From positions 7,549 to 71,548 of the forward strand of contig JAHEXW010000005.1 in NCBI GenBank assembly GCA_023251915.1: DNA of 64,000 nucleotides. The letters are read 5' to 3'. The notes beneath the pieces are model-generated. The model was not told the origin of the DNA and ran no database searches. It saw nothing but the letters and a program-made list of their open reading frames with translations. Positions 33,690 to 42,606 of this stretch are shown here, piece after piece. Position numbers and translations under genes: made by a program. The first letter of the stretch is position 1. Every line of letters starts with the position of its first letter. Source of the stretch: Actinomycetes bacterium (GTDB taxonomy: Bacteria > Actinomycetota > JAHEXW01).

Positions 33690-33771
33690 ATTAACGTAAG
33701 CGGCGACGAGCAAATATCCTCTGGGCTCGAATGTCGCGGCTTAAGCCGCAAGGTCGAGCTCTCCGGCAAAC

Positions 33772-33811
33772 AAAAAACCTAGATAAGCCATATGGTTTAT
33801 CTAGGTTTTTT
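33772..33811 (-). terminator. Terminator hairpin after the duplicated tRNA-Gln 3' end
   Basis: AAAAAACCTAGATAAGCCA-TA-TGGTTTATCTAGGTTTTTT; A/T tracts on both sides. Confidence 0.8.
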
Positions 33812-34031
33812 GGCTGGGGCGGGAGGGCGTCGAACCGTCGGGCAGCCACCCAACAGTCTGCCCTCCTCAGAGGTGCAACCAAAGGTTTCCCCTCTGATAT
33901 CTCCCCTTCCTTGGTCCCGTCTCAAGGTGAAGCCTCTCCCCCTTGAGAATCCCCCTCAGGTTCGACCCCTCGGGAACAAAGTAAAACGCCTGGACAGTCC
34001 ATTGTTAGGTGTTATGAACTCTCTAGGCGTT
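33811..34031 (-). repeat. 221-bp tRNA-linked structured unit ending in a duplicated tRNA-Gln 3' end
   Basis: 33811-33828 is identical to the last 18 nt of tRNA-Gln and is followed by g-tcgaacc. The core at ~33837-33975 is homologous to 36170-36312. Confidence 0.85.
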
Positions 34032-34107
34032 TGGCTGGGGCGGGAGGGCTCGAACCTCCAATCTCCAGATCCAGAATCTGGCGCCTTACCGATTTGGCCA
34101 CGCCCCA
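34032..34107 (-). tRNA. tRNA-Gln (CTG)
   Basis: TGGGGCG acceptor stem; anticodon arm CCAGA-TTCTGGA-TCTGG; GGTTCGAG T-loop; encoded CCA; directly downstream of gltX. Confidence 0.96.
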
Positions 34108-34123
34108 ATAATTAAGACAAAAA

Positions 34124-35590
34124 CTATTTTAGCAGGTCTATCGCTCTCGTGACGCGAGCCACGACGCGGTCGCGGCCCAAGACCTCGACCATGTGGAACA
34201 AGCTGGGTCCCTGCATCCGCCCGCTGACGCTGACCCGCAGCGGATGAAACGCTTGCGCCGCCTTAATCCCTCGTTCCTCGGCCTGGCCGCGCAGCAGTCC
34301 TTCGATGGACCCGGCGTCAAAAGGCTCAACGGCCGCGAGTTTATCTTTTAAGACGGCCAAGTACTCTGGCACGTGTTCTTGGGTCATGATCTTCTGCCAG
34401 GCCGCCTCGTCGTAGGCATAATCATCGGTGAAGAAGAACCGGGTCGCGTCCACGATGTCCGGCAGAAGCTTCAGGCGTTCCTGCTCCAGAGCCACCACGG
34501 CTTCGGCATAAGCCATCTCGGCAGCCGACATGTCGTCAGCAATCAGACTCGCTTCAATCAGATAAGGCTTCACCAGTTCGAACAGCTCCGCCGGCGGGGT
34601 TTTGCGAATATACTCGCCGTTCATCCAGAGCAACTTCTCCGTGTCGAAGATGTTGGGGCTGCGCCCGACCCGTTCTAACGAAAATTCCGCAATCAACTCT
34701 TCATGGCTAAATATCTCCTGGGTCGAGCCGGGGCTCCAACCAAGCAAAGCGATATAATTGGCCACCGCATCCGGCAGATAACCCTGTTCCTTGTATTCCA
34801 TGACCGAGGTGGCGCCATGCCGTTTGCTTAGGCGCGCCCCATCGGGTCCCAGCGTCATCGACATATGAGCAAATTTAGGCAGGGGCGCGAAGCCAAGCGC
34901 CTCGTACAGCAATATCTGTCGCGGAGTATTGGAAATATGGTCATCACCGCGGATGATATGGGTGATCTCCATGAGATAGTCGTCGACGACGGCAGCGAAG
35001 TTATAGGTTGGCATCCCGTCTGTCTTCATGATGACAAAGTCGTCCAGCAGGCCCGCCTGAAACTTGACCTCTCCTTTTACGATATCGTCAATCACAATCT
35101 CGCCCGTCTCCGGCATAGCAAACCGCACAACGCAAGATTCTGAACCGGCTCGTTGTTCCGCTGCCTTCGCCGGTAGCTCGCGACATGATTTATCGTATTT
35201 AGGCGGTTGCCCGGCTTTCTGCGCCGCCTCGCGTTTGGCAGACAGCTCGGCCGGCGTGCAAAAACAGCGGTAAGCTTTCCCGCTTGTTAGCAGTTGGGCG
35301 ACATACTTGGAGTAGATATCCAGACGTTCGGTTTGAAAATACGGACCGTGGGCCCCGCCGATCTCGGGACCTTCGTCCCAATCAAGTTTTAGCCAGCGCA
35401 TCCCGTCGATGATGTGACGCACGGCCTCGCTGGTGGAACGCTCGCGGTCTGTATCCTCAACCCGCAAGACCAATGAACCGCCTGCGTGGCGGGCAAATAG
35501 GTAATTAAAAAGAGCCGTCCTGGCCCCGCCTATATGCAGGTGGCCGGTCGGGCTCGGCGCGAAACGCACGCGCGGCGCGGTGTTAGTCAT
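34124..35590 (-). CDS. gltX: Glutamate--tRNA ligase
   Basis: RFAPSPTG, HIGG, RVEDTD, YNFAAVVDD, IRGDDH and LSKR motifs. Start set at MTNTAP (ATG 35590). Confidence 0.97.
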   Translation of the reverse strand: MTNTAPRVRFAPSPTGHLHIGGARTALFNYLFARHAGGSLVLRVEDTDRERSTSEAVRHIIDGMRWLKLDWDEGPEIGGAHGPYFQTERLDIYSKYVAQLLTSGKAYRCFCTPAELSAKREAAQKAGQPPKYDKSCRELPAKAAEQRAGSESCVVRFAMPETGEIVIDDIVKGEVKFQAGLLDDFVIMKTDGMPTYNFAAVVDDYLMEITHIIRGDDHISNTPRQILLYEALGFAPLPKFAHMSMTLGPDGARLSKRHGATSVMEYKEQGYLPDAVANYIALLGWSPGSTQEIFSHEELIAEFSLERVGRSPNIFDTEKLLWMNGEYIRKTPPAELFELVKPYLIEASLIADDMSAAEMAYAEAVVALEQERLKLLPDIVDATRFFFTDDYAYDEAAWQKIMTQEHVPEYLAVLKDKLAAVEPFDAGSIEGLLRGQAEERGIKAAQAFHPLRVSVSGRMQGPSLFHMVEVLGRDRVVARVTRAIDLLK

Positions 35591-35639
35591 TTGACACCCC
35601 TTTCCTTCACGGATTATAACACAGGTAGGAGGTTTTCTA

Positions 35640-36005
35640 ATGATGAGACACCGGTTCACACTATTGCTGGCCGGAACCGCGCTGATAGCCGCGGTGGCCG
35701 GCGGCGGCTGCGGGAATGGATCCAACCAAACGAAGACGACAAATTCAAAACCCGCGGTACGGCAAAACTACGCGGTGGCGATCAAGAATTTCGCTTTCCA
35801 CCCAGCAAACCTGACGGTCGGAGCGAAGTCCAGGGTGACCTGGACAAACAACGACCAAGGGCCGCACACGATAGTAACAACGGTTTTTAACAGCGGCATG
35901 TTGGGCCAAAGCGAGACCTATAGCTACACTTTCATTAAGCCAGGCACATACCGGTACCACTGCGCAATCCACCCCTACATGGAGGGCGTGATTGTTGTCA
36001 AGTGA
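35640..36005 (+). CDS. Cupredoxin (amicyanin/plastocyanin-like) lipoprotein
   Basis: Lipobox GGGC; type-1 Cu ligands PH and YHCAIHPYM. Confidence 0.9.
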   Translation: MMRHRFTLLLAGTALIAAVAGGGCGNGSNQTKTTNSKPAVRQNYAVAIKNFAFHPANLTVGAKSRVTWTNNDQGPHTIVTTVFNSGMLGQSETYSYTFIKPGTYRYHCAIHPYMEGVIVVK

Positions 36006-36037
36006 CGGAAAACCACGTAGAATAGACTTTTGTTCGT

Positions 36038-36114
36038 GGCGCATTCGTCTAGAGGCCTAGGACACCTGGTTCTCAGCCAGGAGATCAGGGGTTCGAATCC
36101 CCTATGCGCTACCA
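36038..36114 (+). tRNA. tRNA-Glu (CTC)
   Basis: GGCGCAT/ATGCGCT acceptor stem; CCTGG-TTCTCAG-CCAGG anticodon arm; GGTTCGAATCC; encoded CCA. Confidence 0.96.
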
Positions 36115-36391
36115 ATGACCCCGAGTGACATCAAATGTTTGGCCGATGTCAGTCGGGGTTATTTATTTAGGGCACAGGGGATTCGAACCGAGGGGGGCTT
36201 TCCAGCGGGGGGAGAGGCTTCCCCCGCTGTCTTCGTTAAGGAAGGGGGAACTCAAGGGGGAAACCTTTGGTTGCCCCTGTGAAACGGCCGGACAGTTGGG
36301 TGGCCGGCCGTTGTTCGATTCCCCTATGCGCTACCAATGACCCCGAGTGACATCAAATGTTTGGCCGATGTCAGTCGGGGTTATTTATTTA
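36091..36391 (+). repeat. 222-bp-period tRNA-linked structured unit with a 79-bp direct repeat (tRNA-Glu 3' end plus terminator)
   Basis: 36091-36169 and 36313-36391 match at 78 of 79 positions and enclose a 143-bp three-hairpin core. Confidence 0.9.
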
Positions 36392-42234: not shown

Positions 42235-42343
42235 GGGTTCAGACTAGGGATTAAGGCTTGGCGGGTCAAGCGGACGTCGCTGGAACGACCCCCACGACCC
42301 AGAGGTTGCATTGATATCGAGCTTGCGGACCAAGAGCGGTATT

Positions 42344-42388
42344 GGGAGGTTGCTTCGTCGGCCAAAAACCGGCCTCCTCGCAATGACG
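42344..42388. repeat. REP-like repeat, intergenic
   Basis: gggaggttgcttcgtcggccaaaaaccggcctcctcgcaatgacg. Confidence 0.85.
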
Positions 42389-42420
42389 CAATGCGTTATA
42401 TGTCGTACAGAATCGCTCTA

Positions 42421-42456
42421 CGTCATTGCGAGCGAATGGAATGAGCGAAGCAACCT
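42421..42456. repeat. REP-like repeat, inverted partner of 42344-42388 (REP doublet)
   Basis: cgtcattgcgagcgaatggaatgagcgaagcaacct. Confidence 0.85.
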
Positions 42457-42531
42457 ACGAGACTGGCGCAGGCCGGGAGTTCTCATCCTTCAATTCCACT
42501 AAAAAAGGACCCACGAAGGGTCCATCTTTAG

Positions 42532-42606
42532 TGGAGCCGGCGGGGAGATTCGAACTCCCGGCCTGCGCATTACGAGTGCGCTGCTCTACCACTGAGCTAC
42601 ACCGGC
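42532..42606 (-). tRNA. tRNA-Thr (CGT)
   Basis: GCCGGTG acceptor stem; GCGCA-CTCGTAA-TGCGC anticodon arm; GTTCGAATC; encoded CCA. Hairpin GGACCC-acgaa-GGGTCC with T-tract downstream. Confidence 0.96.

Follow-up and report, generated by a model that had tools for sequence, protein, structure and literature searches.

The window, i.e., the whole stretch of 64,000 nucleotides of contig JAHEXW010000005.1 (assembly GCA_023251915.1) that was analysed, contains two tRNA genes, each of which is followed on its 3′ side by a unit made up of X′ (an inverted copy of part of the host tRNA), a core of about 120 nt with three hairpins (H1, H2 and H3), and X (in which the 3′ end of the tRNA is repeated directly). 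The parts of the two units are as follows:

36038–36114, plus strand: tRNA-Glu(CTC), host gene, intact, CCA encoded (ARAGORN; Rfam tRNA model, 59.1 bits)
36115–36169, plus strand: hairpin after the CCA with a T-rich run, terminator-like (terminator-like site at 36143–36156)
36168–36189, plus strand: X′ of the Glu unit, in which the host's T loop and the 3′ strands of its T stem and acceptor stem recur inverted (22 nt with 91% complementarity to 36090–36111)
36190–36312, plus strand: core of the Glu unit (covariance model, 121.4 bits; alignment; pair counts), with the purine tract GAGGGGG, H1 at 36203–36229, the linker AAGGAAGGGG at 36238–36247, H2 at 36252–36282 and H3 at 36284–36311
36313–36336, plus strand: X of the Glu unit, direct copy of the host from T loop to CCA with one loop base changed (alignment to the tRNA)
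36337–36391, plus strand: second copy of the post-CCA hairpin and T-run, within an 82-nt direct repeat of 98% identity (terminator-like site at 36365–36378)
34032–34107, minus strand: tRNA-Gln(CTG), host gene, intact (ARAGORN; Rfam tRNA model, 67 bits)
33972–34031, minus strand: spacer with a hairpin starting after the CCA (MFE hairpin of 16 pairs, −22.4 kcal/mol)
33958–33971, minus strand: X′ of the Gln unit, inverted copy of the host T arm (8 nt exact complement of tRNA positions 51–58, abutting the core)
33837–33957, minus strand: core of the Gln unit with H1, linker, H2 and H3 (covariance model, 122.4 bits)
33811–33836, minus strand: X of the Gln unit, direct copy of the host from T loop to CCA with one extra C in the loop (alignment to the tRNA)
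33771–33812, minus strand: distal terminator-like palindrome after X (21-nt arms, 95% complementary)

The original prediction had described both a direct copy of the tRNA 3′ end and an inverted T-arm copy behind each gene, and both were recovered by measurement. The 3′ end recurs 221 nt (Gln) and 222 nt (Glu) downstream; the direct repeat includes the terminator in the Glu unit, and is exact over 20 nt within 26 nt in the Gln unit. In the Glu unit, 14 nt of X′ are the exact complement of tRNA positions 53–66 and end 0 nt before the core. The post-CCA hairpin here forms the middle of a long, interrupted palindrome with the T arm and X′ on its outside: the MFE hairpin (17 pairs, −27.7 kcal/mol) is centred at 24.5 and the tRNA:X′ symmetry at 25.5, the corresponding values of the Gln unit being 24.0 and 24.5. 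The two units are also homologous as supposed, that is to say, their cores align, a 67-nt stretch is 78% alike, and the three hairpins and the common linker are present in both. The claim that the loops are conserved stands in part; it fails for H2, where the invariant "loop" is mostly a 4-bp stem extension (AACC/GGTT) with a 3-nt loop. As for the supposed lack of a convincing ORF, short ORFs of up to 71 aa do overlap the Glu unit, but no reading frame is common to the copies, since they differ by gaps of 1, 2 and 3 nt.

The hairpins had been said to be kept by compensatory change, which was confirmed on 37 aligned matches of the family. In this alignment, which was fitted to the covariance model used for it, 90.7% of the pair cells are paired, against 54.6% and 55.2% with the partners slid by one column; 29 of the 30 pairs change on both sides, with 195 compensatory cells, and none of 500 shuffles reaches the observed values. 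G-T and T-G cells together number 31 against 8 for A-C and C-A cells, and therefore the fold is read on the tRNA-sense strand. The core ends are uniform across at least 19 tRNA hosts (start GAGGGGG, end GAC), and sequence conservation throughout the order extends to the linkers and the H3 loop. Copies at the same site in different genomes retain their hairpins through 2–7 two-sided changes, which fits selection in place, i.e., function, equally with replacement by conversion. A pairing between GAGGGG and the T-stem 3′ strand of X, proposed by RNAalifold, was rejected: it is incompatible with the X′:X stem, and the MFE folds disagree between copies.

Both the existence of a family and its link to tRNA genes, as predicted, were found in the genome as a whole (1.42 Mb, 39 tRNA genes). 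The covariance model has exactly 8 full matches, of 110–127 bits, all of which lie at most 80 nt 3′ of a tRNA gene and on its strand, and with 8 of 8 within this distance chance is excluded. The hairpin that had been described as preceding the unit is found in five copies, where the spacer between tRNA and unit is 58–66 nt long, but it is not universal: the His spacer measures 54 nt, and two others only 9 and 14 nt. Five of the eight units thus stand behind a terminator-like hairpin with no promoter-like site between, and three lie inside one tRNA operon, two of these without a preceding hairpin. The copies of this genome are old, with a pairwise identity of 63–86%, so that nothing points to recent movement here. 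In a tree of the cores, most of the inner branches (9 of 13) are left open. Moreover, an inverted copy of at least 11 nt of the tRNA's own 3′ part is present within 400 nt downstream of 12 of the 39 tRNAs, as compared with 0 of 39 upstream, and the sites concerned include ones where non-homologous modules occupy the same flank layout; the tRNA-Arg(CCG) site holds X′ alone.

The correspondence of the flanks with each host tRNA, another point of the original prediction, was examined in 26 units, of which 25 have a tRNA on the same strand less than 200 nt upstream. An exact complement of 6–20 nt to the host T-arm/variable-loop region was found in the spacer of 24 of 25 units, ending 0–2 nt before the core in 21 of 25, and X is an exact direct copy of 13–28 nt, likewise in 24 of 25. 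X reaches the tRNA 3′ end in most units, and the direct repeat, exact over 17–28 nt, lengthens to 82 nt or beyond 100 nt when it takes in the terminator. X′ is the exact complement of the real tRNA, not of X; X retains the exact 3′ end of the host while the neighbouring spacers diverge, and what lies left of the T loop in X is similar to the host without being identical. Of the 18 units in which X can be aligned to its tRNA, 12 have a single extra C or T 6–8 nt beyond the end of the core. In 17 units, the centre of tRNA:X′ symmetry and that of the post-CCA hairpin differ by 1.56 nt on average (r = 0.77), against 2.91 ± 0.40 nt for shuffled pairings, of which 0.045% do equally well. At tRNA-Arg(ACG), where G000 and G002 have either A or G before CCA, X follows the tRNA of its own genome. 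The register of X′ with the terminator hairpin, together with the change of X along with its host, points to templating or conversion from the neighbouring tRNA gene; therefore, although the ends are matched to the host, the element need not have brought them.

The family occurs in all 5 genomes of the order, with 2–19 copies per genome, and was not found in 56 other genomes of the phylum; in a second phylum, matches are present in 21 of 41 and 7 of 41 genomes sampled around two MAGs. The set of tRNAs carrying a unit differs even within one genus. Empty sites, which had been proposed as something to look for in relatives, do exist: a tRNA that bears a unit in one genome may have none, or only a truncated one, in a close relative, as would fit a miniature, non-autonomous element that targets tRNAs. 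The tRNA-Gln site is empty in a record with a 90%-identical gltX-like protein, and tRNA-Gly(TCC) is filled here and empty in a genome of the same genus. At tRNA-Glu, G002 has only X′ and about 10 nt of core, and G001 only an H3/X remnant; at tRNA-Arg(TCT), only X′ and GAGGGG are left here, with a full unit in G001. In addition, a tandem array lies downstream of tRNA-Arg in G062, mirror-image copies are located on the 5′ side of tRNA-Ser and tRNA-Met, and some copies in G004 and G062 are away from tRNAs.

A degenerate pattern of "linker + H2" matched at least 119 contigs across many phyla, with a tRNA less than 260 nt upstream in only 2 of 84 matches. When the covariance model was applied to these loci, full-length matches at E < 1e-4 came only from a MAG of the same genus (L146) and from L194 and L130; other loci gave weaker full-span matches (E ≥ 2e-4), and most of the remaining hits cover model positions 44–90 only. 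Such partial or weak matches were not accepted as family members and were treated as look-alike G-rich hairpins. No ORF was consistently common to the regions upstream of the distant pattern matches.

With regard to known families, only the four tRNAs of the window pass the gathering scores of Rfam 15, and between 33700 and 36500, with E up to 10, the best non-tRNA match reaches 19.1 bits against gathering scores of 65.7–80, so that the suggested comparison with described RNA families yielded no match at threshold. The Glu unit has no BLAST match among phage and plasmid records. A literature search in the full texts of articles found no description of the family, nor did the passages of a 2024 MITE survey (PMC11602168) that come up under the words tRNA, Omnitrophota and Actinomycetota. 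The repeat family is apparently undescribed.

In our opinion, the two units are best explained, with a probability of roughly 45%, as copies of a non-autonomous, mobile, non-coding module that colonises the ends of tRNA genes. The core folds on the tRNA-sense strand into three hairpins joined by purine-rich linkers, and the tRNA survives each insertion undamaged, its 3′ part standing once in the gene and once more, as X, behind the core. The flanks would be written from the host gene instead of being carried by the element. X would be a long target duplication kept alike by conversion with the adjacent gene, and X′ an outward continuation of the post-CCA hairpin palindrome, made or kept exact by intrastrand templating (fold-back or quasi-palindrome). 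Together, X′ and X can close the core into a four-way junction; in the closing stem, a pyrimidine is bulged out some 7 nt away from the core, and a putative enzyme may recognise this bulged stem on folded ssDNA, the presumed active form, or on a read-through transcript. Such movement, and the order of events outlined for it, would have to accommodate several observations that stand against it: no enzyme was identified, no chemistry has been worked out for the extra pyrimidine or for the constancy of the core ends, and the retention of hairpins at the same site fits function equally. Moreover, neither an excision product nor an empty allele was seen among the contigs of one sample containing the region, which break at repeats.

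The search for an enzyme gave the following results. RT (PF00078) was detected in 0 of the 5 genomes of the order (91–99% complete), with a control positive in 3 of 14 known genomes, and the idea of a co-occurring RT was accordingly dropped; TnpB (PF07282) was also detected in 0 of 5, with a control positive in 8 of 14. The IS110 family is present in 2 of the 5 genomes. The tyrosine recombinases of G000 are just two in number, Xer-like and about 300 aa long, and other genomes of the order have extra integrases of 360–417 aa; none of the units examined has an integrase beside it. An HUH nuclease elsewhere in the genome, as had been suggested, does exist, since Y1 HUH transposases occur in all 5 genomes, but no core (model E < 0.1) was found in 10 loci around Y1 genes, and in the second phylum Y1 is found both in genomes that carry the element (16 of 21) and in those that lack it (15 of 20), so that no link between Y1 and the element was seen. 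The last unit of the G062 array contains the start of a 260-aa ORF, which looked like an HTH plus LAGLIDADG-type nuclease. It has no Pfam hit at E up to 1, no relative in G000–G004 and no Foldseek match in the PDB at E ≤ 0.001 (model pLDDT 80.6), and it is present in 11 of the 21 genomes that carry the element and in 7 of the 20 that do not; as a mobilising enzyme it was rejected on the evidence to hand.

Several known systems share part of this layout. MITEs and other non-autonomous repeats, such as Correia/NEMIS, are small, non-coding and multi-copy, have inverted-repeat ends and a duplicated target, and vary in presence between relatives. The module is likewise short, non-coding and multi-copy (8 here, 2–19 in relatives), but it has no element-borne TIRs, X′ and X being host-tRNA sequence that differs by site; no parent IS or element was found, its direct repeat is neither short nor of fixed length (17 to more than 100 nt), and its interior is a conserved three-hairpin fold. 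The attL/attR duplications of tRNA-integrating elements and CIMEs leave the tRNA intact, place downstream a displaced or duplicated 3′ end that begins at the T loop or close to it, and accrete in tandem. The module is bordered by similar direct repeats; unlike them, its core sits at no fewer than 19 tRNA species, in inserts of less than 250 nt with no adjacent integrase, and an inverted T-arm copy is added. Like the module, the tyrT-rtT repeats of E. coli follow a tRNA gene and include its 3′ end, but they are confined to one locus of one lineage; to our knowledge, these repeats contain neither an inverted T-arm copy nor a conserved multi-hairpin core, both of which the module has, and it matches no Rfam family at threshold.

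REP/REPIN-RAYT, IS200/IS605 ends and PATEs are hairpin-based and strand-specific, are thought to act as folded ssDNA, and use bulged bases as recognition marks, and REP elements are neither tied to tRNAs nor accompanied by target duplication. The module is also hairpin-based and strand-specific, in an order whose genomes all have Y1 genes, but it lies beside no Y1 gene, and the presence of Y1 does not track it in 41 genomes. The lack of TnpB in the five genomes sets it apart from an IS200/IS605 guide RNA (omega RNA/reRNA) or PATE, as the lack of RT does from retroelements (SINE-like, retron, group II). In quasi-palindrome template switching, imperfect palindromes are made perfect by intrastrand templating, and integron attC and CTX phage attP are folded single-strand recombination sites, hairpins with extrahelical bases. 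These are mechanisms and not families, unlike the module, and we know of none that writes tRNA-derived arms around conserved cargo. A more far-reaching proposal, which we regard as rather doubtful, is that of a new class of target-templated (self-programming) element serving tRNA genes in several small-genome lineages, in which inverted and direct copies of the tRNA 3′ half would be written around structured cargo, with the terminator hairpin as fold-back template and the bulged closing stem as recognition site; or else X′ may act in cis as an anti-T-arm, by which read-through precursors of the tRNA would be shifted from one fold to another.

Less probable than a mobile module, but still a serious alternative, is a family of functional RNA genes lying within the transcription units of tRNAs, with the unit produced through co-transcription or read-through. 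X′ would then pair with the host T arm or with X, and the CCA tail would let tRNA-processing enzymes release or stabilise an RNA that acts on tRNA maturation or as a mimic or decoy of tRNA ends. The structure conserved on the tRNA-sense strand with its G-U pairs, the conserved linkers and H3 loop, the shared orientation with the tRNA and the copies inside one operon are all as expected of it, as are the hairpins kept at the same site by compensatory change, the exact host 3′ end in X amid diverging spacers, and the exact match of X′ to the real tRNA rather than to X. However, copy number and tRNA set vary even within a genus, truncated remnants, tandem arrays and copies away from tRNAs exist, the distribution across phyla is patchy, five of the eight units follow a terminator-like hairpin without a promoter-like site between, and the same flank layout surrounds non-homologous modules. 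None of the sequencing runs listed as containing the region is an RNA run, and in the RNA run from the same sample, only T-arm-sized pieces were matched.

It is somewhat less probable again that there is no dedicated element, and that the layout is what replication and repair happen to leave behind at tRNA genes: X′ would come from fold-back synthesis at the terminator hairpin, template switches at the T loop, which is conserved and partly palindromic, would copy filler from another tRNA locus, and return through the tRNA 3′ part would give X, so that the core spreads only through the flanking T-loop homology. The register of X′, sites with X′ alone such as tRNA-Arg(CCG), the layout common to non-homologous modules, the joint change of X and host tRNA, and the lack of any transposase, RT or integrase linkable to the family agree with it. 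Against it are the identical core ends at all these tRNA hosts, since uniform junctions argue against repeated multi-step switches with 2–3 nt of homology, and also the extra pyrimidine at a fixed distance from the core, the covariation of the hairpins, and the same core in a second phylum.

That the units are decayed attL/attR remnants of integrase-driven integrative elements (cis-mobilisable leftovers), with the core as the remainder of the element beside the att site, is improbable. A direct repeat of the tRNA 3′ end that begins within the T loop or close to it is the hallmark of tRNA-integrating elements, the host-like but not identical part of X is as expected of an element-borne arm, and extra integrases do exist in other genomes of the order. 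Integrase families, however, keep one site, whereas one core family occupies many tRNA species here within a few genomes, its flanks fitting each of them; none of the units examined has a neighbouring integrase, G000 has only its two Xer-like recombinases, the whole insert measures 176–233 nt, and the core shows structural covariation.

The possibility of an assembly artefact, i.e., collapsed or chimeric repeats from MAG assembly, can practically be set aside: the contigs of the sequencing run containing the region do break at repeats, with none spanning the whole stretch, but depth is similar (about 10) over all its parts, the copies are not identical, and the layout with locus-specific flanks recurs in the 5 genomes of the order and in other phyla.

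If the module is mobile, its ends would be rewritten to match each new tRNA host, a property that we do not know of in bacterial miniature elements, and it would bear on how tRNA genes turn into hot spots of genomic change among uncultured, streamlined bacteria. Handles for biochemistry are offered by the register of X′ with the terminator hairpin, by the bulged pyrimidine, whose distance from the core is fixed, and by the constant ends of the core. If an RNA is made instead, it would represent a new class of tRNA-linked structured RNA in at least two phyla. Duplicated tRNA ends also break assemblies, and can mislead the annotation of tRNAs and islands. A contig from another study shows an arrangement like that of G001.

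The unit proposed from sequence behind two tRNA genes consists of X′ (an inverted copy of the host T-arm region), a core of about 120 nt with hairpins H1, H2 and H3, and X (a direct copy of the host 3′ end). Both host genes were called by ARAGORN and Rfam:

34032-34107, minus strand: tRNA-Gln(CTG)
36038-36114, plus strand: tRNA-Glu(CTC)

The two units lie on the same strand as the host tRNA, are placed behind the gene and terminate in the host 3′-end copy, which stands, as originally predicted, 221 nt (Gln) and 222 nt (Glu) past the real end. The direct repeat is 82 nt long for Glu, with 98% identity and the terminator included, and 20 exact bases for Gln. The inverted T-arm copy expected ahead of each core is likewise present (in the Glu unit, 36168-36189 and 36090-36111 are complementary at 91% of positions), and the two cores, claimed to be homologous, can be aligned with each other. 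In the window, tRNA is the sole Rfam family reaching its gathering threshold, and between 33700 and 36500 the best non-tRNA match at E up to 10 has 19 bits versus gathering scores of 66-80. A 483-aa ORF on the minus strand between the two host tRNAs, within 34140-36005, served as the marker for finding relatives; among named records the best match, at 90% identity, is labelled as an uncultured Actinobacteria MAG, and the second best reaches 54%. A small ORF (35641-36005, plus strand) also lies between tRNA-Gln and tRNA-Glu.

Further copies were searched for in the window's own genome (G000; 1.42 Mb, 39 contigs) with BLAST and with a covariance model trained on the copies. It contains exactly eight full-length core copies, scoring 110-127 bits, and in every case the copy sits immediately behind the 3′ end of a tRNA gene and shares its strand. 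Eight of the 39 tRNA genes serve as hosts, namely Glu(CTC), Gln(CTG), Ala(CGC), Gly(CCC), Arg(ACG), Gly(TCC), His(GTG) and Leu(TAG), and one tRNA operon holds three copies between its genes.

The core is composed, in order, of a purine tract GAGGGGG, H1, a linker with AAGGAAGGGG, H2, a short GGAG-like joiner, H3 and a terminal GAC. All three predicted hairpins are upheld, but the "loop" assigned to H2 is mostly a 4-bp extension of its stem. Pairing was counted in an alignment of 37 matches from seven genomes, which was fitted to the model and so favours structure: standard pairs fill 90.7% of the pair cells, and sliding the partners by one column lowers this to 54.6% and 55.2%. In the same model-fitted alignment, two-sided change occurs at 29 of 30 pairs with 195 compensatory cells, which bears out the idea that the stems vary yet still pair, and none of 500 shuffles matches the observed pairing values. 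Moreover, G-T and T-G cells number 31 versus 8 for A-C and C-A, and from this excess the core fold is read on the tRNA-sense strand.

The flanks are matched to the host. Of the 26 units examined, 25 lie less than 200 nt downstream of a tRNA gene on their own strand. X′ is an exact 6-20 nt complement of the host tRNA, located in the spacer, in 24/25 units; its target is the variable loop, the 5′ strand of the T stem and the T loop, at times extended into the 3′ strand of the T stem and the acceptor strand, and it ends 0-2 nt ahead of the core in 21/25. After the core, X is an exact direct copy of 13-28 nt of the host, again in 24/25 and mostly through the tRNA 3′ end. Where G000 and G002 (another genome of the order) differ in tRNA-Arg(ACG), X tracks the tRNA of its own genome. 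X could be aligned to the tRNA in 18 units, and in 12 of these it has one additional C or T, 6-8 nt past the core end, which sits in the T-stem 5′ strand or in the T loop according to where X starts. Therefore, X′ complements the real tRNA perfectly, whereas its pairing with X includes a bulge.

In 17 units, a hairpin starts immediately after CCA, and the symmetry centre of tRNA and X′ falls close to the centre of this hairpin. The mean offset is 1.56 nt (r = 0.77), with 2.5 nt or less in 15/17, while shuffled pairings give 2.91 ± 0.40 and only 0.045% of them are as good; some of these 17 register sites are orthologous and thus non-independent. With coinciding centres, the T arm and X′ belong to a single long interrupted palindrome, of which they are the outermost arms and the terminator loop is the middle. 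X′ and X are best explained as being written from the adjacent tRNA gene. In this view, X would have arisen as a long duplication of the target, kept alike by conversion, and X′ would be the terminator palindrome extended outward by templating within the strand, a recognised type of replication error. A purely repair-driven origin of the units is kept as a rival explanation; specific recognition of a folded strand is favoured by core ends that are uniform, a bulge at a fixed place and hairpins that covary.

Core matches were found by the model search in all five genomes of the order (8, 2, 6, 4 and 19) and in none of 56 genomes from elsewhere in the phylum. A second phylum is represented by two MAGs, with 2 and 18 matches, and 21/41 and 7/41 of the genomes sampled around them, in two overlapping samples, carry the family. 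The set of host tRNAs varies among relatives, and the empty sites asked about in the original prediction do occur: tRNA-Gln is unoccupied in a record with a 90% identical gltX-like protein, and tRNA-Gly(TCC) is unoccupied in a same-genus genome, though filled in G000. Remnants are seen at other sites. Behind tRNA-Glu, G002 retains X′ and about 10 nt of the core, and G001 retains H3/X alone beside a different insert; behind tRNA-Arg(TCT), G001 has a full unit and G000 has X′ + GAGGGG alone. In G062, a further genome with core matches, three or more units are arrayed in tandem behind tRNA-Arg(TCG). Copies on the 5′ side of tRNA-Ser (G004) and tRNA-Met (G062) have a mirrored order, namely a tRNA 5′-end copy, its inverted copy, the core and then the real tRNA. 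Confinement to tRNA 3′ flanks thus applies to all eight G000 copies, but some G004 and G062 copies are away from a tRNA or 5′ of one. In G004, three near-identical units, two of them oppositely oriented, lie within 500 nt (C126:21770-22279) with no tRNA called nearby, and one subfamily has a fixed hairpin AAGAGC...GCTCTT as its left flank, replacing the tRNA-derived X′.

The variable copy number, changing hosts, remnants and arrays, tRNA-distant copies and patchy two-phylum spread are features of a selfish, mobile, non-autonomous module, unlike those of a housekeeping RNA. A functional RNA is kept as a rival to this reading, and same-site copies across genomes show 2-7 two-sided, pair-keeping differences. 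The modules resemble MITEs, the att duplications of tRNA-integrating elements and their integrase-less remnants, tyrT-rtT repeats and REP/REPIN elements, yet a defining test sets them apart from each. Full-text literature searches turned up no published description of such modules. Copies in G000 and its two nearest relatives are 59-86% alike in pairwise comparison, and their tree is mostly unresolved. The tRNA-His unit of G000 (within the locus C18:2671-3871) clusters with the G001 unit behind the neighbouring tRNA-Arg(TCT) (bootstrap 96, SH-aLRT 94); it resembles the Arg type in its H3/X region and has a degenerate His-type X, which hints that relocation or conversion may have taken place between adjacent tRNA sites.

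In the search for an enzyme, neither a co-occurring reverse transcriptase nor TnpB was found in the five genomes of the order, IS110-type genes are present in two of the five, and the only two tyrosine recombinases of G000 are Xer-like. Y1 HUH transposase genes are present in all five, with no core near them, and in the other phylum they are equally common in element-bearing (16/21) and element-free (15/20) genomes. The last unit of the G062 array contains the start of a 260-aa ORF (L130:4753-5535, minus strand). The ORF is a member of a large unnamed protein family, about 220-300 aa long, with 520 relatives at E ≤ 0.001. GLMLYWAEGxK is an invariant motif of the family, the N-terminus is HTH-like, and neither Pfam nor a fold comparison with the PDB gave a match. 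Its genes nearly always sit inside tRNA operons: a tRNA is present in 78 of 80 loci of this family and starts less than 500 nt past the ORF in 65 of the 80. The gene either immediately precedes tRNA-Lys(CTT) or tRNA-Arg(TCT) or closely follows tRNA-Arg(CCT). The family occurs in Omnitrophota, Planctomycetia, many Patescibacteria and some Actinomycetota MAGs, was not found in the window's order, and does not track the element (11/21 genomes with it, 7/20 without).

The X′/X layout is more general than the three-hairpin core. For 12/39 tRNAs in G000, the 400 nt downstream contain an inverted repeat of 11 nt or more of the gene's own 3′ part, and for 9/39 a direct copy of 12 nt or more; the upstream controls gave 0/39 for both. 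The extra sites hold non-homologous modules or, in some cases, X′ alone:

G000 C4:12304-12480; C22, downstream of 1291 and of 1640; C37:315-620; locus L001, about 280-345: second module family, behind Val(CAC), Val(TAC), Leu(CAA), Lys(TTT) and the Ala unit
Window 42250-42606: Thr(CGT) site of a third module kind, also behind Ile(GAT) and Arg(CCT) in G000
Window 42532-42606, minus strand: tRNA-Thr(CGT)

In the second family, an inverted T-arm copy comes first, then a small hairpin, a copy of the T loop and a long hairpin, and last 11-14 nt copied from the acceptor 3′ strand with CCA; its Leu(CAA) unit is tandemly repeated, and the core-less hairpin behind the Ala unit is the start of such a module. 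At the Thr(CGT) site, a hairpin stands behind the gene and a 16-nt exact inverted T-arm copy lies 50 nt downstream (about 42467-42482), beyond which there is a different repeat with GTCATTGCGAG motifs; similar blocks are found behind Ile(GAT) and Arg(CCT). In addition, a separate repeat bounded by TTCTTCGC... and ...GCGAAGAA, with the inner motif GGCAGGCCA, begins right after CCA or X at several tRNAs of the order: after X at loci L009, L018 and L022, at about 100-260 in L001, and, for about 330 nt from the base after CCA, at G001 tRNA-Glu (L237), where it replaces the 5′ two-thirds of the unit.
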